Positions 558-63,207 of a DNA stretch of 64,000 nucleotides are shown piece by piece. The stretch is taken from IMG/VR virus record IMGVR_UViG_3300049489_000993, positions 1-64,000 of that record; one strand, written 5' to 3'. The notes below the pieces were generated by a model. The model saw nothing but the letters and a program-made list of their open reading frames with translations. It searched no databases and was not told the origin of the DNA. Origin of the DNA: a virus. Position numbers and translations under genes: made by a program. Every line of letters begins with the position of its first letter. Positions within the stretch are counted from its first letter, which is position 1.

Positions 558-2542
558 TTCTTTTTCTCCCAGACAGGTTTTTTGTCGGCCCACGTCGTCG
601 AGGTCCATTCGGCGTCGGCGAGGATGGGAATCGGGGCGAACTGCGGGAAGTCTTCCATGACAGCTTTCAGCTCGCGGATTGCTTGCTCAGCGCCCTCGGG
701 GGCGAGATCAAACTGATTCTCGTCATGGACGGTCAGCACGAACTCGCCGTCGAAACGCCCCGCAGCGCGCCCGGCGGCGAGCACCTCGCAGCACCGCACG
801 ATGGCGATCTTTGCGATGTCGGCGGCGGTGCCCTGAATCATCGACGCGACGGCCTGGCGTGCGGCGCGCGGGTTGAAACGCTTGGTGCCGTACGTGTCCA
901 GCAGGTAGGGGATGCGCCGGGTGCGGCCGAAGATGTTGGTGAAGGCGTGGGGCCGTTGCCGCGCCATCGCGAGGCACAGCTCATCGGTGAAGGCGTTGAC
1001 GCGTGGGTACTCGGCGTGGAACTGCGCGTGCAACCGCTGGGCCTGTTCGTCGGACACGTAGTCAATGCCTTCGGACGGTTTAGCAGTCTTGTTGAGGTTT
1101 TCCATTATCCCAGTATATGTCATGCCGTATGCAGTACCGAAGTTGAACACTTTTGAAATGCGGCGCCAACGCTTCTCAATACTATGAAATAACTTGTTGC
1201 TAGTCGAGGCGTGAATATCCTCCCCGTTGACGAATGCCTGCGTCATCGTTGGTTCCGACGCACAGTACGCGAGCACCCGCAGCTCGATCTGAGAAAAGTC
1301 GATCAAGCCGCGCACCTTGCCACGCGGCACCACGAAAGCGCGCCGGATGCCGGCGTCGTCGTCAGAAGGGATATTTTGTAGGTTTGGCGCGGCAGCACTC
1401 ATGCGACCAGTACGCGCGCCCGCTTGTCGGAACGAACAATGCAATACACTATTAGCATCGCATCGATCAATGATCGGCGCGGTGTACGTCGTCAAGAGCT
1501 TGTCGGCTTCGCGCCATTCGAGCACCTCAGCGAGCATCGGCGTAACGGGCGAGCCTTGGCGCATCATGAATCGCAGCGCCGTCTCGTCGACGGAGGGTTG
1601 GCCTTCGACGCCGGGTTTGTCCTTGTTGCGCGTACGGTAATGGATCTCGTGGCGGCAATGTTCGTACAGGTACGTGCGAAGATCGTCGTCGCTGGAGACG
1701 TTCAGCGGATGTTGCGCGAGGCGGTGGATCTTGCCGAGCGCGACGTCACAGCGGGCTTGTGCGGAAGCGCCGATGCGCTGCAAATGCGGGATGTCGATCG
1801 GGACGCCGACCCATTCCGCCTGCACCAAGCGCGGGAGCAACCGCATCTCAGTCTCGTAGAGCGCGGCCCAATGCGCGCGAACCTGGGGCAGGAGCGCGTA
1901 GTGCAGCGCGAGCGTGTTGTAGCAATCCTTGGCCCCGTACTGCCCAAGGATGGGAACCGGAATCCAAGCGTAGCCGGGCGCCTCGCTTTCCTTCACCTTG
2001 TAGCGCCGGCACTCCTGCTTCAAGACCTCTTTGACGAGGTGCTTCATCTCGTAGGCGTTGGGGTCAACCCCGTGGAACACGCATCGGTGTTCCAGCTCCT
2101 TTGGCTCGTTCTCGTCGACGAGCTGGCATTGGATGAACGTGTCGTCCAGGCGGGCGCGGCAGACGATGCCGTCGACACGGGCAAACAGCAGATCGAACTT
2201 TATGTTCTGCCCCACGATGTTCGCGCGCGGGTCGCCGAGGATGTCTTGCACCATCTCGGTCACGGGAGCGACGGGGAGCTGTCGATCGTTGGTTTGGTGC
2301 CGGATGGGGAAGTAGACGCCGCGCGTGACGCCGTCGCCCTCGTCGTAGCCAAAGCCGTGCGCGATGATGCGCGCCGCGTGGAAGTAGTTGAAGCCACTCG
2401 TCTCGGTGTCCCAAGAAACGTATGTGCGCAGCGCCAGCTCTTTGAGCTTGGATCTCCAGAAGGGGATCTGCCGCTCGTCGGCTACGACGGTGGTGCGCGG
2501 ATCGATGCGCGGCAGCATCGCGGAGGCGAACTCAGCGAACAT
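554..2542 (-). CDS. polA: DNA polymerase, family A (3'-5' exonuclease + polymerase)
   Basis: Exonuclease motifs WDTETSG, GQNIKFD, YGAKD; TGRMS..PNLQNIP; motif A DFSQIELRVLA; motif B RISKVFNFGTAYG (Phe at the Pol I 762-equivalent position); motif C TVHDE. Confidence 0.97.
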   Translation of the reverse strand: MFAEFASAMLPRIDPRTTVVADERQIPFWRSKLKELALRTYVSWDTETSGFNYFHAARIIAHGFGYDEGDGVTRGVYFPIRHQTNDRQLPVAPVTEMVQDILGDPRANIVGQNIKFDLLFARVDGIVCRARLDDTFIQCQLVDENEPKELEHRCVFHGVDPNAYEMKHLVKEVLKQECRRYKVKESEAPGYAWIPVPILGQYGAKDCYNTLALHYALLPQVRAHWAALYETEMRLLPRLVQAEWVGVPIDIPHLQRIGASAQARCDVALGKIHRLAQHPLNVSSDDDLRTYLYEHCRHEIHYRTRNKDKPGVEGQPSVDETALRFMMRQGSPVTPMLAEVLEWREADKLLTTYTAPIIDRCDANSVLHCSFRQAGARTGRMSAAAPNLQNIPSDDDAGIRRAFVVPRGKVRGLIDFSQIELRVLAYCASEPTMTQAFVNGEDIHASTSNKLFHSIEKRWRRISKVFNFGTAYGMTYTGIMENLNKTAKPSEGIDYVSDEQAQRLHAQFHAEYPRVNAFTDELCLAMARQRPHAFTNIFGRTRRIPYLLDTYGTKRFNPRAARQAVASMIQGTAADIAKIAIVRCCEVLAAGRAAGRFDGEFVLTVHDENQFDLAPEGAEQAIRELKAVMEDFPQFAPIPILADAEWTSTTWADKKPVWEKKK

Positions 2543-2807
2543 GGAGCCCCAACGCGTGCCGCGCCCAGGCCGCCTCGATATCGGAGACGGACAGCTCGCG
2601 TGCCTGCGGGCCGAGGGTGCGGCCGGTGTAATCGCGCACGAGGTGGAGCCAGGTGTTATGCGGCGCCGACCAGAACACGACCTCGAGCACGACGGCGAGC
2701 GGCGAGATGAAAAGCGGGCTTTTGAACGGGAGGGTTTCCTCGGCCGAGAGCGCGCGGGTGTATTGCGGGTCGGTGAGGTTGATCGATGCAGAGAGATTCG
2801 TGCTCAC
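2532..2807 (-). CDS. hypothetical protein (91 aa)
   Basis: GTG start coupled to the upstream stop (GTGA); fills the operon gap before the polymerase. Confidence 0.6.
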   Translation of the reverse strand: MSTNLSASINLTDPQYTRALSAEETLPFKSPLFISPLAVVLEVVFWSAPHNTWLHLVRDYTGRTLGPQARELSVSDIEAAWARHALGLHVR

Positions 2808-4537
2808 GATTTCTTGCGCTGCCTCCTCTTCTTTGAACGCTTGGGTTTGCGGCGGGGCTTTGCGGACTTGGCGAGGGTCGCGGCGGGGGATTGGATCTCG
2901 GGGCGCGGGCGGCGCTGGCGATCGATATGGACGTGTACCGAGAGCACGGCGAAGAACTTGGCGCCGGACCACGCGTTGTTGCCGGTGATCGAGCGCGCGA
3001 GCTGTCCAAGCGTCCCGTCCTCAATCATGCTTTCCTGCGGCGACCCAACCACCTGCCCGCGCTCGTCGATCTGGGCCGTCCACAGGACGCGCCAGACCCC
3101 ATCTCGGCGGTAGGTAGCGCCGGTCGCGCGGGTCATGTCGCCGCGGCCGTCTTTGAGCTTGACCACACGGTACCGGACGCCTCGCCAATCCCGCTCCAGC
3201 TCATGCCCGACGGGCAGCAAGGCCAGCTCGGCCGCCGACCCTTGCGGCTTGCGGTACCAGCGCGACCCATCGGCCTTGAGCGCGTAGGCTTTCTGGCCGG
3301 CCGGCAGCACCCCCCGGCGCTGGCTCAGGTAGACCCGCTCCGGTGCGATCGGCTGCGCGCGGAACAGGCGCTTGGAGCCCCCGGTGGGCGTCGACGGACC
3401 AGGGCGGCGCACCTTGGGCCGGCGTTTCGGACGGGGGGGCGCAGCCGGCTTGGCGTCCTCGACGGGGTCCTCGTCGGGGGCCGATGGGATCTCGTCCTCC
3501 TCATCGTCGCCGGGAATCGCGGGGGCTTCTTCGTCGTGGTCTTCGTCGGGGATCGAGGGAACTTCGGTGGGTGCATCCTCTTCGGTGTCGTCTTCCTCGA
3601 CGAGCGGCGGTGGGGGCGGCGGCGTCGTGGTCGACTTGATCAGCACCAAGGGTGGCGAGCGCGGAGCGGGAGCGTGGGCACGTTGGATCGTGGCGAGCTG
3701 GGCTTCGATCTCGGGGCGGGCACCGAGGGCGGCTTCGCAGTCGCCACAAAAGCCGCACTCTTTGGTGCAGGTGGGGTCGGTGAGGTCGAAGTGCCGCGGG
3801 GAGGCGAAGCAGGGCGGGAAGTCCTGCACGTCGCCGCGGTCGTCGGTCATGATCGCGGACACCTCGCGCACGAGGTAGGGGCGATCGAGGGCTTTGACGG
3901 GCGAGCGGTTGGCCAGGGCCACGCGCGCCAGCTCGGCGACGGGCAGCGTTTCGACGGGGCGGGAATCGGGCATTGCGGCATCTCCGTACAGGTGAACCAC
4001 GTCGGCGATTGTGGCGCCCGGCATCTCTCGCCGGGCACGGCGCACGGCGGCGAGTCGGGAGCCCTTCGTCGAGCGGCGGGGCGCCGTCGGTGTACCACGA
4101 GATCCAACGGCATGGATCTCATAAAGGTCCTGAAAAATGGTCTCGCCGATGACGCCCCGAAGGCGCTCGACGGCCGCCTGGCACGCCGCCTGGCGCTCGG
4201 CGGCGAGCACAGCATGCTCCGCGGTCGGCGCTGCGTCCGAGAGGGTGTCGAGGTCGGCGTCGAAAGAGCGAGCCAGCGCGGCACGCGGCTTGGCGTTGGC
4301 CTTGCGAATCAGCGAAATGAAGGCGCTCGAAATGGAGCGGCGCACGTAAGCGATCTCCTCCTCCGGGGGCAGCCCGAGCTGGCGCGCGGCGACGAGGGCT
4401 CGCCATGCGGACACGCGGCATTCGGCGCGCACGTCGTCGTGGTCGACGGCGAGGCGGTCTCGCATCCAGGTGGGGGCGTAGTAGCGGCGGACAAAGGGCT
4501 CGTAGCGCGCAAGATCGCGCTCGATGGCATGTGGCAT
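2804..4537 (-). CDS. sigma-70/ECF-like region 2 protein fused to a Cys-cluster, an acidic linker and a DUF2924-like domain
   Basis: GGGAG RBS before ATG 4537. N-terminus DHDDVRAECRVSAWRA...AYVRRSISSAFISLIRK; CF..........C..ECGFC..C cluster; C-terminal LPVGHELERDWRGVRYRV...LGQLARSITGNNAWSGAKFF matches the DUF2924 pattern. Confidence 0.65.
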   Translation of the reverse strand: MPHAIERDLARYEPFVRRYYAPTWMRDRLAVDHDDVRAECRVSAWRALVAARQLGLPPEEEIAYVRRSISSAFISLIRKANAKPRAALARSFDADLDTLSDAAPTAEHAVLAAERQAACQAAVERLRGVIGETIFQDLYEIHAVGSRGTPTAPRRSTKGSRLAAVRRARREMPGATIADVVHLYGDAAMPDSRPVETLPVAELARVALANRSPVKALDRPYLVREVSAIMTDDRGDVQDFPPCFASPRHFDLTDPTCTKECGFCGDCEAALGARPEIEAQLATIQRAHAPAPRSPPLVLIKSTTTPPPPPPLVEEDDTEEDAPTEVPSIPDEDHDEEAPAIPGDDEEDEIPSAPDEDPVEDAKPAAPPRPKRRPKVRRPGPSTPTGGSKRLFRAQPIAPERVYLSQRRGVLPAGQKAYALKADGSRWYRKPQGSAAELALLPVGHELERDWRGVRYRVVKLKDGRGDMTRATGATYRRDGVWRVLWTAQIDERGQVVGSPQESMIEDGTLGQLARSITGNNAWSGAKFFAVLSVHVHIDRQRRPRPEIQSPAATLAKSAKPRRKPKRSKKRRQRKKS

Positions 4538-4568
4538 TGGTTGTCTCCCGGCGTCAGGGGCAGCTAGG

Positions 4569-4742
4569 TCACGGAGGCAGGCGCTTGGCAATAGCCTTGT
4601 CGCGCGGCATCCAATCGTATGAACGGGGCAAGGTCAGCAGCGCCAGCGCGGCGCGCTCGCCGGCGGAATCCAAGCGCAGTCGGCGCAACCACGCTTGGAT
4701 GCGATGAATGGTGGCGCGGAGTCGGGGGTCAGGGCGCGGCAT
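4569..4742 (-). CDS. small hypothetical protein (57 aa, MPRPDPRLRATIHRIQAWL...)
   Basis: Translated by hand (below the ORF-track cutoff); fills the gap in the operon. Confidence 0.45.
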   Translation of the reverse strand: MPRPDPRLRATIHRIQAWLRRLRLDSAGERAALALLTLPRSYDWMPRDKAIAKRLPP

Positions 4743-4962
4743 TGGGAACCGCTTGTGGGGCGAAGAGTAAGTCGCCCTTCTTGGTCATGGCGCCTGTGCG
4801 GAGCATGAGCGCCTCGATCTGCTCGTACTGTTGGATCGTGCAGCCCTGCGCCATGAGCGCCGCGTAGACGGTGCCGGCGGGGCAGCCGAGGGGGGCCGCC
4901 GCGGCGACGGCCTCACGCACGGCGAGGACGACTTGCAGGAGCGCCCGCTCCTGCGCGCTCAC
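4729..4962 (-). CDS. small hypothetical protein, possible winged helix
   Basis: GTGA coupling; G.PAGTVYAALM..G...QYEQI...L...G pattern. Confidence 0.65.
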   Translation of the reverse strand: MSAQERALLQVVLAVREAVAAAAPLGCPAGTVYAALMAQGCTIQQYEQIEALMLRTGAMTKKGDLLFAPQAVPNAAP

Positions 4963-5165
4963 GAGCGCACCGCCTTCAACGCCAGCGCGGCGCGAAGGAC
5001 GATCAGATCCGTAACGCCGATGACGCGCTCCATGACGCTTGCCGAGCGCGCCATCGTCTCAGAGCGCGCGATCATGGCGGTGATGTGATGGGTGGTCGCC
5101 TTCTCCGCCAGATTCGCGGCGAGGGTGGCGGTAAGCTGTTCGCAGGCAGTCTCGGGTGCGGGCAT
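4959..5165 (-). CDS. hypothetical protein (68 aa)
   Basis: GGAGG RBS, directly downstream of the promoter at 5185-5213. Confidence 0.7.
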   Translation of the reverse strand: MPAPETACEQLTATLAANLAEKATTHHITAMIARSETMARSASVMERVIGVTDLIVLRAALALKAVRS

Positions 5166-5184
5166 TGCGGACCTCCGTGCGCTC

Positions 5185-5224
5185 AGCTTACAGCCTTGGA
5201 TCTTGGGTGTCAAGCGTGAGACTA
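5185..5224 (-). promoter_or_regulatory. sigma-70-type promoter with overlapping palindromic operator (copy 1)
   Basis: TTGACA-N17-TAAGCT; GTCTCA-CGCT-TGACAC overlaps the -35; 5194-5224 is identical to 14024-14054. Confidence 0.85.
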
Positions 5225-5245
5225 CAGCCCCACAGATCCGAGCAC

Positions 5246-6304
5246 TTACGGGATCAATGCGATCTTGGAAAGCGCCCCGATCGGCTGGGCCTGCGCGCGC
5301 CATGCGCGGTTCTCAGCGACGGTGTAGCTGCCAGGGTCCGCACCGTCGGGGTAGCGCACGACGCGCACAGTGAAATGGGGGGCAAGCTTCTCGGCGGCGA
5401 GCTGCGCAGGCGGCGTTTTGCCAGGGCGATCAGTGAGCCACGAATCCGGGTCATAGGCGAGGTCCACCTCACGAATGCCCGCCATGACAAGGAGCCGGAT
5501 TTGCTGCTCGGAGATCACCTTGCCGAAGGTCGCAACGGCGTCGGGGCCAGACTGTAGCCAATCGGTCGGCCCCTCGACGATGGCAATGCGTGCATGCGCG
5601 CGAGCGTACTCCAGCCCCAAAACGACGTCGCTGGCAGACGCAAAGCGCGCGGGATCTTGATTCGCCGGGTTCAGGTTCTTGCGGTACTTCCCGAAGCGCG
5701 CCTCGTCGTGCTCGCTCTTTTCCCACGTCGCACGCGTCTGGAAGTAGATCCACCCCCCCGCATAGTCTCGCACCGGAAACACAAGCCGATCTTGGTACAG
5801 CCCCCATGTGCAAATGCCGACGCCGAGTCGCATGAGGTTGTCGAGGTCAAAGCCGCGCTTGGCGGTGTACGGGTGATGCCCGCGCAAGTGCTCAAAATAG
5901 GGAGGCGGATCAATCGGGGCCGGCTGCCAGAACCGCGGTCGCTCGACGACGGCACGATCGGCATGCGGGTCCTCGGGGATGAGCGCCAGTGAGCGCCCTC
6001 CCGCCGACAAGCGCACCAGCTCGGCGGCCTGCGGGAAACCCCCCTCGTACTCTGCGATCAGCTCCAAGAGCGAGAAGCCCCGCGCGCACCGCAAGCAGCG
6101 CCATTTACGACGCTGCGGGTTGATCGAGAGCTTGTCTTCACCGCCGCACCACGGGCACGTTTGGAGGTACTCGTTGCGCTGTCGACCCTGCGGCTTGAAC
6201 CCGTGGCGCGTGAGCCACTTCTCGAGGGGGAACCTCTCGAGGAGCACCAAGAACGCGGCGTTCTCAGAAGCCCACGTCGACTTGTTCGTGAGGGGTGGGG
6301 TCAT
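5246..6304 (-). CDS. dnaG: DNA primase (Zn finger + TOPRIM)
   Basis: CPWC...WRCLRC zinc-binding domain; RLVFPV; IVEGPTD; LAYDPD; DPG. Confidence 0.92.
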   Translation of the reverse strand: MTPPLTNKSTWASENAAFLVLLERFPLEKWLTRHGFKPQGRQRNEYLQTCPWCGGEDKLSINPQRRKWRCLRCARGFSLLELIAEYEGGFPQAAELVRLSAGGRSLALIPEDPHADRAVVERPRFWQPAPIDPPPYFEHLRGHHPYTAKRGFDLDNLMRLGVGICTWGLYQDRLVFPVRDYAGGWIYFQTRATWEKSEHDEARFGKYRKNLNPANQDPARFASASDVVLGLEYARAHARIAIVEGPTDWLQSGPDAVATFGKVISEQQIRLLVMAGIREVDLAYDPDSWLTDRPGKTPPAQLAAEKLAPHFTVRVVRYPDGADPGSYTVAENRAWRAQAQPIGALSKIALIP

Positions 6305-7655
6305 AGGTCTCCGTGCGCAAGACGCCGGTGTACGCGCGCCCGTGCGCGTAGTCGGTGCGCACCTCGATCAACTTGCCGGCGGGCGCCGACCGATACAGCT
6401 CGGCGTACAAGCGCGCTTTCTCTTGCTGGGCCTCGGCGGTGGTGCGGTTGATCGAGCCGATGAAGTCCGCGCACCGCACCTTCTCGTAGCTGTCCGCAAT
6501 CTGGTTCGAGCGCACAACGTGGTTCTCGTTGTCGACGGCCCCCTTGAGCGGGCGCTGCGCCTGCGACGCCGTCCAGATTGCATAGCCGTTGTCGCGGTCG
6601 CACAGAGCCTTGATGTCGCGGAACGCTGCCGCTTGTTCCTGCGTCGGAGAGTCGTACCGCTGGCGCGCCTTCAAGAGGTCACCGTAGTCGATCACGATCA
6701 TCCGCGGGCGGAATCCCCGACGCTGGCGAAGGTCTGTCAGCTCGGCGTATACGTCGGTAATCGAGGCATTCCACGCCGCTGCGTCCTTGGTGTAGCCGCG
6801 GATGACAAGGAGGTCTTTCATCTCGCGGTACTCGTCGCGCAGCACCAGCATGCGCGTGTCGTCTAGGTGGCCGTGCTTCAACGCCTGCCGCGTCGACCAC
6901 GCAAACGCACTCTCGAATCGATCTTCGGCTTGCTCGCGCCCACCCTCGAGCACGACGTAGAGCACCGGGATACGCAGCGCACGCACGGCGTAATACGCGA
7001 GCCACGAAAGCATATGGCTTTTCCCGACTTTCGCATAGGCCATCCATATACCTAGCTCGCCGCGCGATAAGCCCCCGTCTAGTACAGTGTCAAGATCCGG
7101 CACCCCTGTCGAAAAGGTGTAGAGGTGAGCCTGCGCGGTTTCTTTCGCGCGCCGCTGTGTGCGCGCGTCAAGCTCCTCGAAAAAGAAAGAGCGGTCGACG
7201 CCGGAAAGCGTGGCGGCTTGGATCGCGGTGTTGCGCTCCTCCCAGAATCGACAAACGTCGTCGACGGGTGCGCCGCTGTTGTAGAGGGCGCGCAAGCGTT
7301 CGACGCCGTCGACGATGAGGTTGCGCTTGACGAACTCGGTCAGTCGAGACGCGATGTAGTCCGCTTCCACGACGGGCTGGGTGACGACGGCTTCCACCGT
7401 CGTGAGGTACTGCGCGGCAAGGCTGGCCTCGAGCGAGCGGCATTGCTCGACGAGCACGAGCGGCGTGGGCGGGCGGCCATAGGTCACGAGGTGTTGTTGG
7501 ATCTGGGCGAAAAGCCAGGCGAGCGCGGGCGTCTCGAAGTAGGTGGGTTGGAGCTGCGTGGCGATGAGCGCGGCGACGGCTTCGTTCTCGAGCGCGAGGC
7601 GCAGCATCGCGTGCTGGAAGGGTCGACCAAAGGGGGCAGCGGTCGACGATGTCAC
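6264..7655 (-). CDS. dnaB: DnaB-like replicative helicase
   Basis: STGVPDLD..LDGGL.RGEL; Walker A AYAKVGKS; VVLEG; IDYGDLL; TASQ; GTG start coupled to the upstream stop. Confidence 0.92.
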   Translation of the reverse strand: MTSSTAAPFGRPFQHAMLRLALENEAVAALIATQLQPTYFETPALAWLFAQIQQHLVTYGRPPTPLVLVEQCRSLEASLAAQYLTTVEAVVTQPVVEADYIASRLTEFVKRNLIVDGVERLRALYNSGAPVDDVCRFWEERNTAIQAATLSGVDRSFFFEELDARTQRRAKETAQAHLYTFSTGVPDLDTVLDGGLSRGELGIWMAYAKVGKSHMLSWLAYYAVRALRIPVLYVVLEGGREQAEDRFESAFAWSTRQALKHGHLDDTRMLVLRDEYREMKDLLVIRGYTKDAAAWNASITDVYAELTDLRQRRGFRPRMIVIDYGDLLKARQRYDSPTQEQAAAFRDIKALCDRDNGYAIWTASQAQRPLKGAVDNENHVVRSNQIADSYEKVRCADFIGSINRTTAEAQQEKARLYAELYRSAPAGKLIEVRTDYAHGRAYTGVLRTETYDPTPHEQVDVGF

Positions 7656-8236
7656 CGAGAGACCTCGCGCTGAAGTTGTCGCGCGCGGGCGCTGCATTCA
7701 ACGCGCACCGGGCACTGCGGACAGATTGCCGACTGCGCGTGATAGCCGAACGTGAGGTCGGCGGACAGCAGGCAAAGCGTGTGATTGCCGCGCTCGAACA
7801 GGGTCCGCTTCATCGTCTCGGCACCGGGGTGGAGGTCTACAAAGGGAAGAAACGCGCGAGCTTGCCTTGCGTCTTTCGCGAGTGCCGCAGAGCGCCCGGT
7901 CTCCGTATGCCCATCAGCGGACCAGGCGACGAATGCCTCGGCGCGCGCTTCGGAGAAAAGCGCGGCGAAGGGCGGCGCGTGTCGGCCGGCGAGCTGGGCA
8001 AAGAGATGGGCGAGCCACGCGACGGGATCGAAACGGCGACGGCGGCACCATACGTCGAGGGCGTAAAAGACGTGCAGCGTCGATTGTGACCACGCCTTAG
8101 CGGGATTGCGGCCTTGCGCGACCACTCGCTTCCCCCACCCCGTCGCGCGCAAACCCTCGTTGTAGACGCGCAGGAGGGTCAGGGCGCGGTCTTGCCAGCC
8201 CGGCGACCAAGACTCCGGGGGCGGAATGTCCGGCAT
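7652..8236 (-). CDS. hypothetical replication-module protein with C-terminal Cys cluster (CPQC....C)
   Basis: ORF coupled to dnaB. The start is uncertain and could extend upstream into a Lys/Arg-rich stretch at ~8330. Confidence 0.65.
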   Translation of the reverse strand: MPDIPPPESWSPGWQDRALTLLRVYNEGLRATGWGKRVVAQGRNPAKAWSQSTLHVFYALDVWCRRRRFDPVAWLAHLFAQLAGRHAPPFAALFSEARAEAFVAWSADGHTETGRSAALAKDARQARAFLPFVDLHPGAETMKRTLFERGNHTLCLLSADLTFGYHAQSAICPQCPVRVECSARARQLQREVSR

Positions 8237-8331
8237 TGGGACGGCTTCCAGCGTCCAGGGGGATGGGCGCTTCGCGCGCTTGCTGCGCGCCTTGGCTTTC
8301 CGCTTGGCTTTCTTCTTCTTCGCAGCCACAC

Positions 8332-8371
8332 AAAAAGAAACGGCGGGCGCCCGTGAAAGCATCCGCCGTCT
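8332..8371 (-). terminator. intrinsic terminator
   Basis: GACGGCGG...CCGCCGTT stem followed by TCTTTTT, downstream of the SF2 helicase. Confidence 0.6.
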
Positions 8372-8417
8372 CGCTCGGCCCCACGTTGACGCCGGGAGGC
8401 CGAGCCCGCCCACCGTA

Positions 8418-9905: not shown

Positions 9906-9948
9906 GGTGCTCCAGCCGGTAGTAACGCTCGTCGAGGCGAAGCGTCCA

Positions 9949-10085
9949 GCGAGGCTTTGCGAGCTGGCGCGAGCCTTTGCGCCGAAGCCGAGCGGCGAGG
10001 CTTTGCGAGCTGCGAAGGCGCAGGCCGCGGAATCGTGATCGCGATTGCGTGCGAGAGTGTTCCTCGCAAAGCCTCGGAACACTCT
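9949..10085. repeat. iteron-like repeats plus a 10-bp-stem hairpin
   Basis: GCGAGGCTTTGCGAGCTG at 9949 and 9995; variant GCGAGCCTTTGCG at 9969; inverted copy at 10063-10076 inside the hairpin AGAGTGTTCC/GGAACACTCT. Confidence 0.8.
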
Positions 10086-13051: not shown

Positions 13052-13534
13052 TCACACCCCGTTTCTCCCAAAGATGACGCCACCAAAGGCGCCGTACTGA
13101 CAGATCACGTCGCGGACGTTGTCGTCACCGTGCGACATGAAGCCGGCAAGGATCTCAGCGGGGTTCGTCGCGACAACGCCTTTGCCCCACAGCGTCACGA
13201 TCCAGCGCTCGTTGTCGTCGAGAGCTGCGGCTTGCTGTGCCAGCCTACGCACGCCGCGCAGCGCAGTCGTGCGCGTCAGCACCACGTCGCCGCCGTGCTT
13301 CGCGTCGAAGCGCACGCGCACCTTCCAGCCGGCGCGCATGAGCTTGTCGTCGGGGAAGCGCGGATCGGGGCGCCCCCAACTCACGACCTCTGCGCCCTCG
13401 TCCGACCAGTAGTGAACGGCCCGCCAGACGCACTCAGCCTCGAGCCAGTCGACGGCGGTGGGCTTTCGCGGTGCGGGCGGGAAGGAGCGTGCGAGCCTGT
13501 CCAGGGCCTTCGTAGCGGCTGCGGCGCGATTCAC
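13052..13534 (-). CDS. hypothetical phage protein
   Basis: GTGA coupling; C-terminal DVICQYGAFGGVIFG motif. Confidence 0.65.
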   Translation of the reverse strand: MNRAAAATKALDRLARSFPPAPRKPTAVDWLEAECVWRAVHYWSDEGAEVVSWGRPDPRFPDDKLMRAGWKVRVRFDAKHGGDVVLTRTTALRGVRRLAQQAAALDDNERWIVTLWGKGVVATNPAEILAGFMSHGDDNVRDVICQYGAFGGVIFGRNGV

Positions 13535-13725
13535 ATGACCTCCTTCTCTAGGGTAACGCGAGCTTCGCGCACCAGTTGTTCCAACGCGCGGGCGGCGGCG
13601 AGCTGGGCTTCGGCGATGGACGGTGCCTCGCCGCTGTCGGCGGGGCCGCCGTTGCACCACACGGTCCAAGCGACGTGATCGTCGGCGGTGCCGTGAAATG
13701 AGGTTTCGTAAACTTGGGGGTTCAT
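13531..13725 (-). CDS. hypothetical protein (64 aa)
   Basis: AGGAG RBS; ATGA coupling. Confidence 0.65.
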   Translation of the reverse strand: MNPQVYETSFHGTADDHVAWTVWCNGGPADSGEAPSIAEAQLAAARALEQLVREARVTLEKEVM

Positions 13726-55092: not shown

Positions 55093-55137
55093 TTCTTTCT
55101 CTCCTGGTTAGATGTCGAGCGGGATGCGCCGACGGAA

Positions 55138-56013: not shown

Positions 56014-56026
56014 GGTCTCTGCTCCT

Positions 56027-56827
56027 TCAGGCCGCCTTGGCGGCGCGAGATACGGCGAACGCAAGAATGCGGACGGCCGTGGTTTTGTCGACGTCTGGAT
56101 AGCGACGCTTGATCAAGATGAGGGCTTCGCTCTTGCCGAGCTTCTTTTTCTTCTTCGATCGACGAGCTTTGTAGCCCTCGATGGATTCCGGCATGACAAC
56201 ACGCCCAGCGCCCGCGCCGGTGAGCGGCACGCCGGCCGGTACTGCACCTGGGTCGGAGCCACCTGCCGGAGGACCGACGGCGAGCGCCTTGTTCATCGCG
56301 TCTAGGCTCTTGCTCAACACCTCGAGCGCGGTGTCGGGGTTCACAGGGCAGTTGGTTACCGCCACGTTTTTGACGACGGCAGAAGCGATGATCGGGGTGC
56401 CCCCCTTGTTCAACCGCTGAGTGACCTTGCCTTCGATCGAGAACCCAAGTCGGCGTGAAGTACGCTGGAGCGAGCGTGCCAGCCCCCAAACACGGTCGGC
56501 GGGAGGGTGTCCTTTGAGTAAGTAGCCCTCGACAAACCACCCGGATTTGTCAGCGGTGCGCCCGTTTGGGAGCGTCTCGCCCTTCTCGATGAGCTTGGCG
56601 GTCTCGGGGAAGCCGATAATGTCCGCCGTTGCGCGGGAATGGTTGTCGTTGAACCAGCCGTCGCGGAGAAAGGGGGTGAAGTCCAAGCCGGACTGCAAGA
56701 CCTTCTCACCCTGCTTGTCGAGCTTGGCGGTCGTGACGAAGCCGGCGATGCGGCGTTCCTTCTCCGGCTCGCCGGCCTTCTCGAAAGGCTCAATCTCGAC
56801 GTCAAAGGAGAAGTCTTGCTCGATCAC
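56027..56827 (-). CDS. prohead maturation protease
   Basis: I.G..TT...D.QGE.V.Q.GLD...F...GW.N.NH; IIG.P; LGFSIEG; NVA.T..PVN. Confidence 0.9.
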   Translation of the reverse strand: MIEQDFSFDVEIEPFEKAGEPEKERRIAGFVTTAKLDKQGEKVLQSGLDFTPFLRDGWFNDNHSRATADIIGFPETAKLIEKGETLPNGRTADKSGWFVEGYLLKGHPPADRVWGLARSLQRTSRRLGFSIEGKVTQRLNKGGTPIIASAVVKNVAVTNCPVNPDTALEVLSKSLDAMNKALAVGPPAGGSDPGAVPAGVPLTGAGAGRVVMPESIEGYKARRSKKKKKLGKSEALILIKRRYPDVDKTTAVRILAFAVSRAAKAA

Positions 56828-56842
56828 GACAATCCCACCCCG

Positions 56843-56884
56843 AAAAACGAAAATGGGCGCCACCGCGTTGTGCAGTAGCGCCCA
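56843..56884 (-). terminator. terminator/attenuator hairpin in the leader of the head operon
   Basis: TGGGCGCTACTGC-ACAAC-GCGGTGGCGCCCA followed by TTTTCGTTTTT. Confidence 0.65.
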
Positions 56885-56925
56885 CCTCTTGTGCCACATG
56901 TGCGGCTAGGCCCTTGGGTGAGGGC

Positions 56926-56955
56926 AGACTAGGGGCGAGGTTGGATCTTGGTCAA
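56926..56955 (-). promoter_or_regulatory. promoter carrying the CCAAGATCCAA box
   Basis: TTGACC-N18-TAGTCT; the box is shared with the promoters at 5.2 and 14.0 kb. Confidence 0.55.
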
Positions 56956-57161
56956 GAACGCCGCAGAACGAGCCGTGTGGGCTCGTGGGCGGGGATGGCG
57001 CTTTTGGCGAGGGTTACAGGGACCGGAATCTCAGCGTGGCACCTGGGGCACGAGGTGAGGCACGTCTCGCCCAGGGCGTCGAATACGAGAATGGGCACGC
57101 GCACCTTGAGCTTGTCGCCGCTCTTTTGCAGGAGGTTGTGCGCGCACTCGGGACACCGCAT
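56952..57161 (-). CDS. small Zn-ribbon protein (Com-like)
   Basis: MRCPEC.HNL...CPRC; TAATG coupling to the giant ORF. Confidence 0.7.
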   Translation of the reverse strand: MRCPECAHNLLQKSGDKLKVRVPILVFDALGETCLTSCPRCHAEIPVPVTLAKSAIPAHEPTRLVLRRS

Positions 57162-60100
57162 TACCCATCATCGTCTGATTCCCCGAGCATGCGCAAAGCG
57201 TCGTGGAGCGGGGGAATGGCGCGGCGGCGTTCCATCTCTTGCTCGGCGCGCGCATGGTTTCGCTTGGAGCCCGCGCGGGCGCCCTCGCGGAGGTCGCGCA
57301 GCGTTTGCGGCACGTAGCCCTCGGTGGTGGGCGGCTCGCGCTCGACGCGCACGAACAGCGGGCGAAACCGATCTGCGCCCGCCTTGAAACGCTCGCGTGC
57401 GTCGGCTTCCTTTTGCTTGTCCTTTTTGCGCTTGTCCTTCTTCGCTTTGAGGGTGAGGCGGATGCTGTCCGCGGCCTGCATGTTGGACGGCGGGCGCTGT
57501 TTCTTGGGGGCGTCTTGGTTGCCGAGCCAAGACATCATGGTCAGGCGCGTGGGGTTGTTCGCGAGCGCCTGTAAGGCGTCAGGATCGCTTTTCTGCGCAT
57601 CGGGGTAGGTACGGGGCACCTCGAGCGCGCGAGCGTCTTGGCGGGTGCCCTGGAGCCGCTCGACGAACTCCTCGAATGGGAACACGGTAACGCCGCCCAG
57701 GAAGCGGGGGTCGCTGTAGTGGGTGAGATACGCCGCGACGGCCTCTGACTGGCTTGGGAAGCCCAGCATGACCTTGTCCTCGTCCTCGTCGGCGAAGGCG
57801 CCGTTGGGGCCGCGTTTTTTCATTTGGTGGACGACGTAGACGTTCTCGGCGTTCTCGTTGGGACCGACGTAGACGTCCACCTTGTCGCCGTCGAGCCCTT
57901 CGGTGCGATGAATCTCCCCGTACGGGAACTGCATTTCCGTTTCGCCGTGCTCGCCGGTGTGCTCGTCGAACCATTGGCGCGTGGAGCCGGCGGGGTTCTC
58001 GACGTGGATGTGGAGCCCACGGAAGCGGATGTCGGCCTTGAACAGCGAGAGCTGTCCCTGCGGGGGAGGTGGCGCCGAGGCGGTGAGCTTGGTGGCGGGA
58101 TCGGGGATGGGGTGTGCGGCGGGGGTCTCCTGGCGTCCGTACACCGCGTTGTGCGCCGCGTGCCACTCGGGGCCGAGGGCGGCGACGCGCTTCTCGAACG
58201 CCGTGAGGGCGCGCTTGATGGCGGCGTCGTCGCGCCCATATTTCCGCTTGTGCTCGCGCGGGTCCATGCCCTCGGTCGCGCCCCCACCTACGCGGCGCGC
58301 GGTGGCCTTCCCGGCGACGTAGGACAAGAACACTTTGACGCCCGATGCGAGAGTGACCGTCTCCTCGGCGCCGGAACCGTCTGTGTGGCTCTTGAAGTCG
58401 CCGGGGGCGGGTTGTGTTGGTGGGGACTGTGCCGGAGCCGGAGCCGGAGGTGGTGCCGCGACCGCTTCCAGCGTGCGCGTGGCGTCCGCGATGGGTGTGG
58501 TGGGTGCCGCGGAAGGCGTGCTCGGCGGGGGCTCCACGGCCTTGCCTTGGATCTTCGCCAGTACGTCTGCCATCGCGAGGGGCTTTTCCATCCACTCGCG
58601 CTCGGCGGGCGAGATTTGCTTGCCCTGATTGATCTTCGCGGCGAGGTCGTACTTACGACGGAGAATCGCCGTCACGTTCTCGTCGAACTTGTTGTCCTCC
58701 GCAACGACCCAGTAGATGTTGACGGCGTTTTGCTGGCCGATGCGGTGTGCTCGGTCTTCGGCTTGGCCGATGTCGGCAGCGGTCCACGGGAGGTCGTTGA
58801 ACACGACCTTGTCGGCGGCGGTGAGCGTGGCGCCGACGGCCAGCGACGGGCGCGTCGAAACGAACACGCGCTTGGGCGAGCCCTCCCGCATGAACTCGGC
58901 CTTGGCGGCTTCGCGCACGTCGTCGGATTGCTGGCCGTAGTGCAGGATGGCCTCGTCACCCAGCTCGGCGACAATGGCTTTCGCGGCGGCGACCGACTCA
59001 GAGAACACAAGCACCTTGCTGTCGGAGCTGCCAAGGATCTCCTTCACCATCTCGACGGTGGCGGGAGCCTTCGCGAGTGCGAGCTGGCCTCGGATGCGGC
59101 TGTATTCGCCGACCGAGGTCGACGGCGCACCGCGACCGCCCGCGCCGTACTCGCCGACCGCTTCTGCGTAGAGGTCGGCGTCGTTCTCCTCATCGCGACG
59201 CGACTCCCGGAAGTCTTCGGCCGCTTTCGCGTATGCGGCCTTCTGGCGCTCGGTCGCTCCGGGCGGTGGCGGCTTGGGCTCTCGCACCTCGCCGATATCG
59301 GGGGCACCTGGCGCGTAGAGTGTGCTGATCGTGGTCTGCTTCGGCGGAAGGTCTTTCAGCACCTCAGCCTTCGTGCGCGCGAGGTAGTGGGGGCGCATCT
59401 TGTTCCACGCCGCCCCGTGCGTCGCCCCCTTCAACTCTTTCGCCGAGCCCCACAGGCCCGGCACGACCATCTCGAGCTGCGTGAACAGCTCATCCTTGCG
59501 GTTCTTGACGGCGGTGCCGGACATGAGGATGTGGTGCTGCGTGATCTTTGCTACACTTTGAATCGCCTTAGTAGTTTTGGCTTTGGGGTTTTTCGCACGG
59601 TGACTGTTGTGGACTAGGACGCCACCGACGGAGAAGGATGGGTGCCCAGCCACCTTGAGATCGTAGTAGTGACCCGCTTCGTTTCCTGGGTAACTTCCCG
59701 ATTGGTGAACCGTAACGTCGCCCACCCTAACTCCCGCAACTTCTCCTCTTTCTTGAAATCCTGGCCTTTCCGAGACAAGTGCGAGAAGCCATCCACTTCG
59801 ACGCTGAGCTTCCGATCTACCAATGCGAGGTCGGCTTTGTAGTTGGTGGGATAGCCGGGCTGTCGCCGACCAAGGCTGATCGCGTGATTCCACTTCCACG
59901 GAGGGCCGAGCGCCTCGAGTAGCGTTCGCTCGGCTTCTGTCGGTCCCGTACCGTTGCCTCTGCGCACCGTCGGCTTCCAACCCATCGCCTTGAGCGACGC
60001 CGACGCCTTGGCGCGCGTCTCTGCACTGCGCATCGGGTTGTTCGCCCTCATCCGCGCCGAGCACGCCGGGCTCTTCTTCCCAATATTCGCCGCCCGCAGA

Positions 60101-62041
60101 GCAGCCTTCCCTTCCGGCGTCATCAGGCTCTTCGCGTAGCCCGGACGGCTCATCCTCCACTTCGCTGAACAGGAGGTCCCGCAGAAACGATTCTTGCTCC
60201 GAGGCGGCGTGAAGGTCTTCCCGCAAAAGGCGCATGGCTTCTGTGTGGCTGACAAGCGTGTCTCCGGGCTTGAGGTCTTCGGCGTAGATCCAACCTCTCC
60301 CGGTGAAGAACGGATGGTGCGCCGAGCACGTCACAGACGTGCTGCCGTACCTTAGCTCGATGCGATTGGCAAAACCAGACCGCCGAAACGCGCCTAGAAC
60401 TGGAGCCGGACCGAGAGCCGATAGGACAATGTCGCCGACTTGAATCTGATCGATACGACGAGGGCCGGTCGGCGTGTCAACGAGCGTCTCAGGACCGAAG
60501 CATTCGTCGACAATCAGTGTATCAAAGCCCGCCGCTTTGAGATAGGGCATGAACTTCTCGAGGCTTTCGTAGTTGACCGTCACGAGATTCTTGCCCGAGA
60601 GGTCCATCAGGCCCTTCTCGCCGCCCGCGTGCATCGCCGCGAGGAACGCGGCAGGGTCATCGATCGACGCAAGGTCGGTGCCCTTCTTGCCTTTGCCCGT
60701 AAGCAGATCCTTGGACCGAAGCTCCTTCGCATCGAAGTGCCCTGGGAAGAACTTGTGGGCTTCTTGAATCCAAGTGCGGCGCACAACCTTCGGCACGACG
60801 ACGATCGCCTTCTTGTTGTTCTTGGCGACCCACGCAAGCGCCTGAAGCGTTTTGCCAAGCCCCATTTCGTCGCCGACGATGGCGTTGCCGTCGTTGCCGT
60901 CGAGGAAGCGCACCATCGCGTTCTGGTACGGCTTGAGCGCAAAGCCTGGCGCGAGCTTGGCTTGCACCTCGGGAATCGGGGCCTCGGCGGCGGCTTTGTC
61001 GCGCGCGGCTTTGTCGGCGGCGTCTTTGATCTTGGGATCGAGCACGAACGTGAAGTGCGGGAGTGCGGCGCGGAGCTTCTCGAGCGCCTCCTCCATGAGC
61101 GCGTGCGAGAACGTGGAGCGGCTCCAGGTGCGGGGATCCGCTTCGATGATGCCGGTGAGCTTGCCGGTTTTGTTCGACATGATCTCGTTGAAGTCGCGTG
61201 AGAATGTCGAATAGAACACAAAGCGGCCGTCGTCCTCCTGCACAAGCGCGATCGTGTCGCGGGCGCGCTTGTTCACGATGGCCGAAGCGACTTCGTACAC
61301 GTCGACGGGCCGTGGGGGCGTCGGCGGTTGTGCGACGGGCGTGGCAACGGGGGCCTGCTCCACGATCTCCGGCTTCTCGGGGATGTGGATCTTGATCCCA
61401 CGCTTCTCGAGCGCCGCGACGTAGGCGCTTGGATCTTGCGCCACGGGGTGTGTCGGTGGGACCGTCTCGCGCGCGGCGGCACCGCGCTCCCCGTTCCAGC
61501 GGAACCCGTGCGTGCGGTGAATGTCCTTGAACGCGGCGAACTTGTCGCCGAGGTACTGCGCCGTGCGGATGTGCAAGCCCCCGTTGGACGTCCACTGGCC
61601 GACGAGGTCGGCGTCCGCAGTTGCCGGCGGCGGGTCCGCGAGGCCCACGCGGATGAACGCCTCGAGCCCGTAGTGCCCGACGAGCTGCCGGCGGTACTTG
61701 CGCAGCATCCGGCGCATGCGCTCGACGTCTCCGCGGGCGCTTCCCCACGACTGATAGTCGAGCTTGTTGAAGCCAATGTCGTTCTGCTCGCGGACCTCGT
61801 CGACGGAATGCAACGCGTCGCCCATGCGCTCGAGGAGAGCGACCGCTTCCGGGTCCGCGTGACGCTCCTTGAACTCGTGGTGCGCCTGCTTGTCCTCGAC
61901 GACCTCCCACTCGCCCTTCGCGTTCTTGCGGTGGAGCTTGCCGTCGGCCCATTGGTGGACGGTGCCGGCGACAGCGGCTTCCGCTTTCGCGATGGCGTCC
62001 TCGACATACAGGCGGATGGGGCTGTCGGCAGAGTCACTCAT
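57161..62041 (-). CDS. polyvalent head-associated protein: SNF2 (SMARCAL1-like) helicase with intein + InPase-like domain
   Basis: GGAGG RBS at ATG 62041. LKPYQ; GDEMGLGKT; VNYE; DE|SH; MSGTA..NR..EL; KVLVFS; GATLTAA; QAEDRAHRIGQ; C-terminal GL.I.VENP.GS.R...YG.I..TEG.DGD.VDV.VGP...DEDKVMLGF. Confidence 0.9.
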   Translation of the reverse strand: MSDSADSPIRLYVEDAIAKAEAAVAGTVHQWADGKLHRKNAKGEWEVVEDKQAHHEFKERHADPEAVALLERMGDALHSVDEVREQNDIGFNKLDYQSWGSARGDVERMRRMLRKYRRQLVGHYGLEAFIRVGLADPPPATADADLVGQWTSNGGLHIRTAQYLGDKFAAFKDIHRTHGFRWNGERGAAARETVPPTHPVAQDPSAYVAALEKRGIKIHIPEKPEIVEQAPVATPVAQPPTPPRPVDVYEVASAIVNKRARDTIALVQEDDGRFVFYSTFSRDFNEIMSNKTGKLTGIIEADPRTWSRSTFSHALMEEALEKLRAALPHFTFVLDPKIKDAADKAARDKAAAEAPIPEVQAKLAPGFALKPYQNAMVRFLDGNDGNAIVGDEMGLGKTLQALAWVAKNNKKAIVVVPKVVRRTWIQEAHKFFPGHFDAKELRSKDLLTGKGKKGTDLASIDDPAAFLAAMHAGGEKGLMDLSGKNLVTVNYESLEKFMPYLKAAGFDTLIVDECFGPETLVDTPTGPRRIDQIQVGDIVLSALGPAPVLGAFRRSGFANRIELRYGSTSVTCSAHHPFFTGRGWIYAEDLKPGDTLVSHTEAMRLLREDLHAASEQESFLRDLLFSEVEDEPSGLREEPDDAGREGCSAGGEYWEEEPGVLGADEGEQPDAQCRDARQGVGVAQGDGLEADGAQRQRYGTDRSRANATRGARPSVEVESRDQPWSATARLSHQLQSRPRIGRSEAQRRSGWLLALVSERPGFQERGEVAGVRVGDVTVHQSGSYPGNEAGHYYDLKVAGHPSFSVGGVLVHNSHRAKNPKAKTTKAIQSVAKITQHHILMSGTAVKNRKDELFTQLEMVVPGLWGSAKELKGATHGAAWNKMRPHYLARTKAEVLKDLPPKQTTISTLYAPGAPDIGEVREPKPPPPGATERQKAAYAKAAEDFRESRRDEENDADLYAEAVGEYGAGGRGAPSTSVGEYSRIRGQLALAKAPATVEMVKEILGSSDSKVLVFSESVAAAKAIVAELGDEAILHYGQQSDDVREAAKAEFMREGSPKRVFVSTRPSLAVGATLTAADKVVFNDLPWTAADIGQAEDRAHRIGQQNAVNIYWVVAEDNKFDENVTAILRRKYDLAAKINQGKQISPAEREWMEKPLAMADVLAKIQGKAVEPPPSTPSAAPTTPIADATRTLEAVAAPPPAPAPAQSPPTQPAPGDFKSHTDGSGAEETVTLASGVKVFLSYVAGKATARRVGGGATEGMDPREHKRKYGRDDAAIKRALTAFEKRVAALGPEWHAAHNAVYGRQETPAAHPIPDPATKLTASAPPPPQGQLSLFKADIRFRGLHIHVENPAGSTRQWFDEHTGEHGETEMQFPYGEIHRTEGLDGDKVDVYVGPNENAENVYVVHQMKKRGPNGAFADEDEDKVMLGFPSQSEAVAAYLTHYSDPRFLGGVTVFPFEEFVERLQGTRQDARALEVPRTYPDAQKSDPDALQALANNPTRLTMMSWLGNQDAPKKQRPPSNMQAADSIRLTLKAKKDKRKKDKQKEADARERFKAGADRFRPLFVRVEREPPTTEGYVPQTLRDLREGARAGSKRNHARAEQEMERRRAIPPLHDALRMLGESDDDG
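59606..60502 (-). mobile_element. intein (299 aa) inserted in the helicase Walker B motif
   Basis: DE|CFGPETLV...; block B C.AHHPF; GWI.AEDL.PGD; block F YYDLKV.GH.SF; VLVHN|S. Confidence 0.95.
59614..60255 (-). CDS. Vsr-like/DUF559 homing endonuclease overprinted on the intein (+1 frame)
   Basis: TTG start with GGAG 6 nt upstream; CAFCGKTF...RFCGTSC zinc finger; NUMOD3-like NPM...TRAK.S.SL; T.AE..L; Y.ADLA....L.VEVDG.SH....D..K...L...GW..LRF.N. Confidence 0.88.
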   Translation of the reverse strand: MSATQKPCAFCGKTFTPPRSKNRFCGTSCSAKWRMSRPGYAKSLMTPEGKAALRAANIGKKSPACSARMRANNPMRSAETRAKASASLKAMGWKPTVRRGNGTGPTEAERTLLEALGPPWKWNHAISLGRRQPGYPTNYKADLALVDRKLSVEVDGFSHLSRKGQDFKKEEKLRELGWATLRFTNREVTQETKRVTTTISRWLGTHPSPSVAS

Positions 62042-62061
62042 ACGGGGCCTCCGCGTCGGAA

Positions 62062-62100
62062 ACCCTAACGAGCTTGGACCTATAGTCTCAAGCGTGAGAC
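62062..62100 (-). promoter_or_regulatory. promoter/operator (copy 3) for the polyvalent protein
   Basis: Perfect palindrome GTCTCA-CGCT-TGAGAC overlapping TTGAGA-N18-TAGGGT. Confidence 0.7.
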
Positions 62101-62106
62101 GTCCAG

Positions 62107-63207
62107 TCATGGGGTAGCCTTCCACAGTAGGAGCTTGGGCGGTTCCGTCCAGCGTTTGCGGCGAGGGCTCTTGGGGACATCTTCGGCGGTCGCGGACGCC
62201 GGTGGGTGGAATGTGCCTATGGGCTCGCCGACTTTGAGCCCGGTGCTGTGGCCGGCGCGCTTGCGCCCGGCTTGGACCGATTGCCCTTTGGGGAGCATGC
62301 GGGCGCCGCGGCCTTCGCTCTTGGCGGTCTCTGCTTCGTCCTCGCTCTCGGCGGGGGCTTCTGGTACTAGCTCACCATTGAGCCAGCGTAACCCCTTGGA
62401 AACGCTCACCATTTCGCAGGCACACCAAGGATGAACTCCCTCAACCGTGGCGCGCAGGTTCTTGCCCTTGCGCCCGACATTGGAGCCGTGGGCACGCAGC
62501 TCGCCGATCGTGAAGATGCGTGGGTTGCCGTTGGCGTCCAGGTACGCGGCTCGGCACGCGCTACAGGCCCCTGGGGAAGGGATCTTGCTCACGCCCGCCC
62601 CGGAGCCGCCCCGTTTCTCGATCGTGGCTGCAATGCCTTCCTGCATCGCGTTGTTGACCTCCGTGGTGGCGATGCGCTGCCAGTCGCGAGTCCAGTTGCC
62701 CATGGAGTGCCCGAGGTCGCTCTTGAGCTGCTCGATGGTTTCGCGTTTGGCGATGGCGGCGGCGGTCTTGTCGCGGATGATCTCTACCATCCGCTCCGGC
62801 GTGAGGTTGGCCTCGGCGCCGGTGACCTCGGCCATGACCTGCCCGGCGACGCGCGCGCCGAGCCCGACCACGTACTGCCCCGCGTGCTTCTGCGCCATGT
62901 CGACCGAGGCGCGCTCTTGCTCTGACAGGGCGAGCGGGAGCTTGTTCTCCGCAACGAGCTGGGCGACCTCGGCGACGGTCTTGGTGGCGAGCTTGGGGTC
63001 ACGCAGGATGGCCAAGAGCTGCCCATAGGCGAAGGGGTCTCGGATCAAGTCCTCGGAGGAGGGCACCTTGATGCCGGCGGCTTGGAGGTCTTTCAGGAGA
63101 TCGGGCGGGAGCGAGCGTGCGCCGAATACGGCGAGGGCGATGGCGGCGTGGTGGCGGGCAATGGTCGCGCGCACCCGTTCGAGTTGTTCCGCCGACCACA
63201 AGGGCAT
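62107..63207 (-). CDS. MuF/SPP1 gp7-like head morphogenesis protein
   Basis: W.RDWQRIA.TE..NA..EG; AC..C...Y.....P..F...EL; HPWC.C. Confidence 0.85.
   Translation of the reverse strand: MPLWSAEQLERVRATIARHHAAIALAVFGARSLPPDLLKDLQAAGIKVPSSEDLIRDPFAYGQLLAILRDPKLATKTVAEVAQLVAENKLPLALSEQERASVDMAQKHAGQYVVGLGARVAGQVMAEVTGAEANLTPERMVEIIRDKTAAAIAKRETIEQLKSDLGHSMGNWTRDWQRIATTEVNNAMQEGIAATIEKRGGSGAGVSKIPSPGACSACRAAYLDANGNPRIFTIGELRAHGSNVGRKGKNLRATVEGVHPWCACEMVSVSKGLRWLNGELVPEAPAESEDEAETAKSEGRGARMLPKGQSVQAGRKRAGHSTGLKVGEPIGTFHPPASATAEDVPKSPRRKRWTEPPKLLLWKATP

Follow-up and report, generated by a model that had tools for sequence, protein, structure and literature searches.

Phage homing endonucleases such as I-HmuI/II, I-TevI and SegG make contacts over tens of base pairs next to the insertion site and, in mixed infections, cause the flanking sequence to be replaced. 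In haloarchaeal MCM inteins the flank is co-converted on invasion, and a +1 residue (the one directly following the insertion point) that blocks splicing makes empty alleles resistant (PMC10643990). In yeast the essential gene FBA1, a target of WHO endonucleases, diversifies to evade them, a third of silent single changes being resistant (bioRxiv 10.64898/2026.08.13.744650); the Vsr-like enzyme I-Bth0305I has a footprint of ~60 bp in which few single substitutions lower cleavage, and HNH and GIY-YIG phage enzymes protect 30–40 bp next to the site of insertion (PMC3239194). Co-conversion, resistant +1 residues and arms races between endonucleases and their targets are therefore already known, and the dynamics of inteins and homing endonucleases are usually inferred from presence and absence over many genomes; our literature searches turned up no account of compositional scars at unoccupied intein sites. 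Here we describe candidates for such scars, short islands of A/T-ending codons in genes otherwise dominated by G/C-ending ones, in a 64,000-nucleotide stretch of DNA (positions 1 to 64,000 of IMG/VR record IMGVR_UViG_3300049489_000993, hereafter the window), which corresponds to the initial 64 kb of an 89,456-bp phage genome that was assembled as one contig from the metagenome of a freshwater sediment. We consider that the islands in the genes for PolA (two islands), a DnaB-like helicase and an SF2 helicase, and those beside the intein of an SNF2/InPase virion protein, probably record the traffic of inteins and homing endonucleases through homing sites.

Codon islands and intein insertion sites

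The window is 64.5% GC, with almost every gene on the minus strand and a mean GC content at third codon positions (GC3) of ~0.80. The initial annotation, made from the letters of the window, had pointed to patches of A/T-ending codons on conserved motifs of core genes, and most of these proved to be real (Table 1). GC3 falls to 0.36 at the TGRMS/NLQNIP block of PolA and 0.54 at its motif B (0.79 for the gene), to 0.58 at the DnaB Walker A motif (0.81), 0.48 at the SF2 DEYHH motif (0.76), 0.53 in the adaptor (0.78), 0.48 at the HPWC motif of the MuF-like protein (0.83), and 0.45 and 0.56 in the extein flanks of the SNF2 intein (0.79). The one casualty was a patch in the protease (56450–56525, minus strand; 0.58 vs 0.77), already marked as weaker in the initial annotation, which was indistinguishable from chance in the shuffle test described below (p = 0.17). 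Amino-acid composition cannot yield such values, because the genome-wide frequency of A/T-ending codons is only 0.14–0.40 per amino acid and for none exceeds 40%.

When synonymous codons were shuffled within each gene (30-codon window, 500 shuffles, 71 open reading frames (ORFs)), 7 of the 71 ORFs reached p ≤ 0.008, with peak windows lying where the initial annotation had placed its patches: PolA 1379–1468, DnaB 7008–7097 (p = 0.008), SF2 9144–9233 (p = 0.004), adaptor 44261–44350 (p = 0.004) and MuF 62359–62448 (p = 0.002). The other two are reading-frame artefacts (59729–59818; 13514–13585), and the chance probability of five genuine genes at this level is 3e-4. The shift is silent, as had been proposed: GC at codon positions 1 and 2, compared with relatives, is no different inside and outside the patches, and private amino-acid substitutions are not enriched within them. 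The patch codons include the rarest ones (TTA, CTA, ATA, GTA).

Alignment of database homologues of PolA, DnaB and SF2 revealed inteins at the same positions, and the codon that holds them lies at the centre of four of the six empty patches (PolA TGRMS, PolA motif B, DnaB Walker A, SF2 DEYHH). PolA patch 1, in whose peak 18 of 30 codons are A/T-ending against a gene mean of 0.21, spans two insertion points, R377/T378 (window positions 1412/1411) and S382/A383 (1397/1396), which correspond to the inteins of P0028 (GTN^C..HN^TGRFS, carets marking the splice junctions) and P0025 (TGRMS^C..HN^S), respectively. PolA patch 2 is centred on the motif B site NFGT^AYGM (T470/A471; 1133/1132), which is empty here and has Ala at +1, while inteins occupy it in P0002 (the same as L081), P0027, P0029, L085/L082 and L035 (NFG(T/L)^C..N^SYG) and in L051 (NFGN^C..N^SYG). 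The DnaB patch contains K226/S227 (7020/7019), also empty, at which five homologues (P0178, P0179, P0211, P0212 and P0218) have LAGLIDADG inteins (GK^A..HN^T/S). In the SF2 patch H299/A300 (9186/9185) is empty, again with Ala at +1, and it is the insertion point of inteins in P0244, P0252, P0254, P0256, P0260, P0273, P0282 and L166 (DE(F/W)HH^C..SN^SAA) and, with an SN^SAS junction variant, in L154. All homologue inteins in the three genes lie inside a patch with the exception of those at the SF2 Walker A site (PPR^C..HN^SGKT; R187/S188, 9522–9524/9519–9521), which four other homologues use.

We compared all intein sites of the three genes and the resident SNF2 junction, the Walker A site included, with random positions in the same genes, and found the A/T excess around intein sites to be significant (combined p ≤ 2e-5, half-windows of 8–20 codons). 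Judging from these alignments, PolA 377/378, 382/383 and 470/471, DnaB 226/227 and SF2 299/300 are empty intein homing sites. The suggestion that dips in GC3 map empty homing sites as scars of attack is accordingly supported for PolA, DnaB and SF2; it could not be carried over to the MuF and adaptor genes, which yielded no intein or nuclease evidence.

The one occupied site carries the same signature in its flanks. The resident element has Cys1, a C-terminal His-Asn and Ser at +1, and although its Pfam scores (Hint_2 23.7 bits, cut-off 28.4; Intein_splicing 21.6, cut-off 35.8) are both under the curated cut-offs, we assign it as a Class 1 intein for which splicing is predicted. Its flanks are 0.47 and 0.53 A/T-ending vs 0.17 across the exteins, the signal on the C-terminal side stopping sharply ~20 codons out. 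In the relative G001, a syntenic 107-kb IMG/VR genome with a protein identity of 50–77% along the map, the intein is precisely absent and the same residues are written in G/C-ending codons, bearing out the earlier claim about these flanks. The +1 Ser codon is AGT here vs TCG in the empty G001 allele, a family switch that is unreachable by silent single steps since the two belong to different Ser codon families.

Table 1. Genes, codon patches and intein features in the window (carets mark splice junctions).
Feature	Position	Strand	Details
PolA	554–2542		
PolA patch 1	1364–1471	-	codons 358–393, 23/36 A/T-ending
PolA patch 2	1079–1192	-	codons 451–488; 16/30 A/T-ending
DnaB-like helicase	6264–7697		
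DnaB patch	6990–7100	-	codons 200–236, Walker A site AKVGK^SHML
SF2 helicase	8418–10082		
SF2 patch	9105–9236	-	codons 283–326, around DEYHH^AAALSY
Ad1-like adaptor	44186–45226		
Adaptor/Ad1-like patch	44261–44420	-	most conserved block (..SLSIDGLSESVGTTSSATNAGYGA..)
Prohead protease	56027–56899		
SNF2/InPase virion protein	57161–62125		1654 aa, intein-bearing
C-extein flank	59540–59605	-	12/22 A/T-ending, then 2/30
Intein	59606–60502	-	299 aa, in SNF2/InPase gene, DExH box LIVDE^C...VLVHN^SHRAKN
Nested putative homing endonuclease	59614–60255	-	+1 frame, 213 aa, zinc ribbon + DUF559/Vsr-like PD-(D/E)xK
N-extein flank	60503–60550	-	mildly A/T-ending, 7/16
MuF-like protein	62107–63207		
MuF-like patch	62359–62448	-	VHPWCAC..

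Proposed homing footprints and rival explanations

Around these sites, G/C-ending codons typical of the genome are replaced over ~60–130 nt and the protein is unchanged. A homing history could account for this as follows. Phages of the group carry inteins at these codons, most of them with a nuclease gene of their own (LAGLIDADG in frame, HNH or Vsr-like out of frame), and in a mixed infection the nuclease would cut the intein-free allele, the break then being repaired from a non-identical homologous template. The replaced tract might be a product of gene conversion, either co-conversion with an intein later lost or the copying of an allele without the intein from a relative whose composition differs, or it might be a build-up of selected silent changes. 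The recoded allele would persist as a poor substrate for nucleases that read 30–60 bp with distributed specificity, and in PolA motif B and SF2 it also has Ala at +1, where splicing needs Ser, Thr or Cys. Nuclease footprints of 30–60 bp fit a recoding of half of the codons over 60–130 nt. As to the two routes, conversion tracts are a good possibility that falls somewhat short of an even chance, in-situ selected recoding is a possible but distinctly less probable source, and the rest goes to an inseparable mixture of both.

Several observations are suggestive of conversion. The flanks of occupied sites deviate in both directions, being G/C-rich in L166, whose gene is A/T-richer, and A/T-rich here and in L081 and L154; the idea of co-conversion from lower-GC donors, which the initial annotation had offered, was on this evidence half right. 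Codons for Ser have switched family both within the patches and next to them. L081, which is the closest relative of this PolA (62% identity) and has a GC content of 58.6%, is A/T-rich at both PolA patches (58% vs 28% elsewhere), even though its own TGR site is empty, and the GARTGRMS core of PolA patch 1 is closer to the distant intein-bearing P0025 than to close relatives, over what is a short stretch. In addition, a segment of ~215 nt is ~95% identical at the nucleotide level between the window (~4760–4975, inside a 77-aa ORF) and L085, a syntenic metagenome locus (~6205–6420), where the neighbouring genes share ~60% protein identity; it looks like a recent short-patch exchange or else a strongly constrained element, and it makes short-patch exchange plausible for the conversion route. 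In favour of in-situ recoding, only silent positions have changed; the occupied L166 allele has flanks similar to the G/C-coded L085 alleles and unlike the SF2 patch of this phage; and in both PolA motif B and SF2, Ala takes the +1 position that Ser has in the occupied alleles.

A number of results weigh against homing footprints as the explanation. Judged by a genome-wide maximum statistic, no patch stands out by itself other than PolA patch 1 (p = 0.01) and the adaptor (p = 0.053), and the DnaB, MuF and PolA motif B patches are individually below the genome-wide maximum null, so that the weaker patches rest on the gene-wise shuffle tests and the intein-site association test. The SF2 Walker A site has no dip in this phage, and the occupied sites of L085 and L051 have unremarkable flanks. 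Of 28 A/T-ending patch codons, 14 are identical in L081, a degree of sharing that does not significantly exceed expectation (Fisher p = 0.14). Megablast and blastn searches of INPHARED phages, with the window and with the patches as queries, returned no donor, and none of the relatives found exceeds 85% identity, which would be needed to date the events; nor is a distant donor indicated, since the patches show no excess of private amino-acid changes. Two sites have Ala at +1, which speaks against simple descent from an occupied allele through precise loss of the intein. Finally, the few adaptor and MuF homologues found contain no insertion. INPHARED contains no near relatives, an IMG/VR scan using PolA alone gave no matches, one using the DnaB alignment gave intein-free genes only among the best 80, and a search of sequencing runs found the phage in the source run alone.

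We speculate, tentatively and with less confidence than we have in the homing origin itself, that silent-site composition islands are a general heritable mark of immunity, in which phages attacked by intein-borne nucleases recode the whole 60–130 bp nuclease footprint, sometimes together with the +1 residue. If so, a single genome would reveal empty homing sites and the footprint sizes of the enzymes, and the MuF HPWC and adaptor SIDGLSES patches would predict undescribed homing sites in virion genes.

The best surviving alternative is that conserved motifs merely supplied the homology for short-patch recombination with lower-GC relatives, inteins and nucleases playing no part. This would be in keeping with the near-identical 215-nt segment, with the lower-GC and mosaic character of L081 and with the position of the MuF patch at a domain-fusion breakpoint; it is nevertheless unlikely, since the most conserved windows away from intein sites have no patch, each of the four replication-gene patches has an intein insertion codon at its centre, and the INPHARED searches returned no donor. 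Slightly less probable still is local mutagenesis, that is, repeated breaks with error- or deamination-prone repair, A/T-biased mutation and purifying selection on the protein. It would explain a purely synonymous shift centred on the sites, and many of the changes relative to L085 are C-to-T or G-to-A. It does not explain Ser family switches (TCG vs AGT) and two-step Leu codons, nor the flanks of the L166 intein that deviate towards G/C, and the sharp patch boundaries contrast with the long tracts expected of resection; we also found no skew mirrored between the strands on either side of the sites (A vs T p = 1.0; C vs G p = 0.85).

Because the patches fall within catalytic motifs and contain the rarest codons of the genome, functional clusters of rare codons, which slow the ribosome for co-translational folding, or some other selection linked to the motifs, had to be considered. 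The initial annotation had placed the patches on conserved motifs, but the dips do not follow conservation in general: Spearman correlations between conservation and A/T excess are 0.13, 0.13 and -0.17, and -0.06, -0.06 and -0.31 without the intein neighbourhoods. Other equally conserved motifs of the same genes show no excess, the most conserved of the remaining windows (the Exo motifs, motif A, QGTAAD and GRTRR of PolA, the C-terminal blocks of DnaB and motif VI of SF2) having zero or negative values. Nor do homologues from other GC-rich phages share the effect. Among 30 PolA genes with GC3 ≥ 0.66, neither the TGR nor the motif B site is enriched in A/T-ending codons, 29 SF2 and 10 DnaB high-GC genes show no enrichment at theirs (the largest local excess is +0.11 vs ~+0.34 here), and in L085 and G001 the same amino acids are spelt with G/C-ending codons. 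When G001 was scanned for patches of its own, significant windows appeared only at 5' extensions of ORFs or in wrong frames, with none at intein sites. Because these high-GC homologues, L085 and G001 lack the dips, motif-linked selection such as translational pausing is largely refuted and very improbable as the cause, and the ~70 high-GC homologues without dips at the same motifs therefore point to the history of this lineage and not to a property of the motifs. Internal promoters were rejected as well, as a sigma-70-type scan of 554–10082 gave one match, on the non-coding strand, where one was expected.

Escape from host spacers of clustered regularly interspaced short palindromic repeats (CRISPR) against conserved phage genes has only general logic in its favour, in that silent changes from a GC3-saturated state would be to A/T, and it is highly improbable, as it predicts neither the centring on intein codons nor the signature beside the resident intein, and single changes in the protospacer-adjacent motif or seed would suffice where here half of the codons differ over ~100 nt. 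Equally improbable is a chimera in which lower-GC relative stretches were joined at conserved k-mers: the genome is a metagenome assembly and the phage is present in its source run only, but independent Logan contigs of that run bridge the PolA, DnaB and SF2 patches without a differing letter and at even depth, and relatives of 60% identity would not share long exact words at both ends of six patches. At the patches these contigs contain no variants, inserted form or alternative alleles, a result that is uninformative on polymorphism.

Virion-gene patches and nested nucleases

The two remaining patches, in the adaptor and MuF-like genes, each lie on the most conserved block of the protein, and they may be the same kind of footprint at undiscovered sites. 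No free-standing nuclease gene was identified near the adaptor by Pfam among ten candidate ORFs. The MuF patch falls in the last conserved codons before the point at which, in G001 and P0240, MuF continues into a fused InPase domain. InPase (PF18823) forms the C-terminal end of the SNF2 protein here, and in G001 it directly follows MuF in one 1159-aa frame (56166–59640), an instance of domain shuffling between neighbouring virion genes with a breakpoint that adjoins the MuF patch. As MuF-type minor capsid proteins of actinobacteriophages host inteins, an undiscovered MuF intein site is possible, and a recombination junction is an equally good reading of this patch. The extra length of the large polyvalent protein in G001 is not an intein.

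The resident SNF2 intein contains a nested gene in the +1 frame that encodes a putative homing endonuclease. Read in its own frame, this ORF shows the usual codon periodicity (GC3 0.75), and it matches Pfam DUF559 (45.2 bits, cut-off 20.6) and PDB 3hrl (E 1e-6); the intein frame stays open across it and there encodes a low-complexity acidic, Arg-rich linker. The nested ORF starts at GGAG-N6-TTG and its TAG stop is formed by the rare CTA codon of the intein's VLVHN, so that plausible expression signals are present and the gene is apparently intact. The deepest dip of the window, 59729–59818, is this gene and not a rare-codon patch.

Similar arrangements occur in the relatives. The PolA motif B inteins of L081, L085 and L035 contain conserved out-of-frame ORFs of 180–196 aa (L081 5060–5650, L085 11643–12185, L035 11484–12074), which are read from the sense strand and share an HNH-type motif (..DNDG.YSPENLRL.T..N). 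In L166 (1845–4496), the SF2 DExHH intein contains an out-of-frame Vsr-like ORF (2839–3642) that is homologous to that of the window (29% identity, E 2e-14), and the two inteins also share an N-terminal splicing block, which suggests that one intein lineage moved between two different DExH-box helicase genes.

The other frame artefact, at 13514–13585, arose in an ORF extended upstream of its real GTG start. ORF 13052–13669 overstates this gene: the start lies near 13531, is preceded by AAGGAGG, and has no coding periodicity upstream of it in the frame of that ORF. A TGA in another frame overlaps the GTG (ATGTGA), which suggests that an upstream gene ends there.

Comparison with described systems

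If silent-site islands do mark empty sites, past or ongoing homing pressure could be read from one genome, tract and footprint lengths could be measured, resistant alleles picked and new target sites predicted. This phage combines four empty sites with an occupied one and a nested nuclease gene that is apparently intact, and its relatives provide matching alleles, so that it would offer a compact system in which to test whether recoding gives resistance.

The closest parallel is with the haloarchaeal MCM inteins, which also lie in nucleotide-binding motifs of replication proteins and whose resistant +1 residues have a possible counterpart in the Ala of PolA motif B and SF2 (PMC10643990). Unlike there, what we describe is a compositional island of silent sites, readable from one genome at several empty sites together. 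The yeast WHO elements are eukaryotic LAGLIDADG elements that replace the end of a gene, and the changes in FBA1 include amino-acid changes under positive selection, whereas those here are silent only (bioRxiv 10.64898/2026.08.13.744650). I-Bth0305I, an EDxHD/Vsr-like enzyme, has its nuclease core in common with the nested ORF, and its 60-bp footprint and tolerance of single substitutions fit the size and density of the recoding (PMC3239194); that enzyme is intron-encoded and has NUMOD domains, whereas the putative nuclease of this phage begins with a zinc ribbon and is encoded out of frame in an intein. The marker exclusion of I-HmuI/II, I-TevI and SegG was defined genetically between near-identical phages; in the present case inteins are concerned and the evidence is comparative.

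Inteins with out-of-frame or antisense nuclease genes have only recently been described (bioRxiv 10.1101/2025.01.02.630785; bioRxiv 10.64898/2026.09.14.751524), and the inteins of this phage group resemble the non-canonical inteins of actinobacteriophages and of cyanobacterial dnaX in that the splicing frame remains open across a nuclease gene in another frame. The actinobacteriophage examples comprise antisense Vsr-like, antisense LAGLIDADG, out-of-frame EndoVII-like and in-frame HNH nucleases (bioRxiv 10.1101/2025.01.02.630785). In contrast, the predicted nucleases here are Vsr-like in the +1 frame of the sense strand, at the SNF2 and SF2 DExH sites, and HNH-type out of frame at PolA motif B, and from their gene arrangement we regard them as further variants of the non-canonical inteins.

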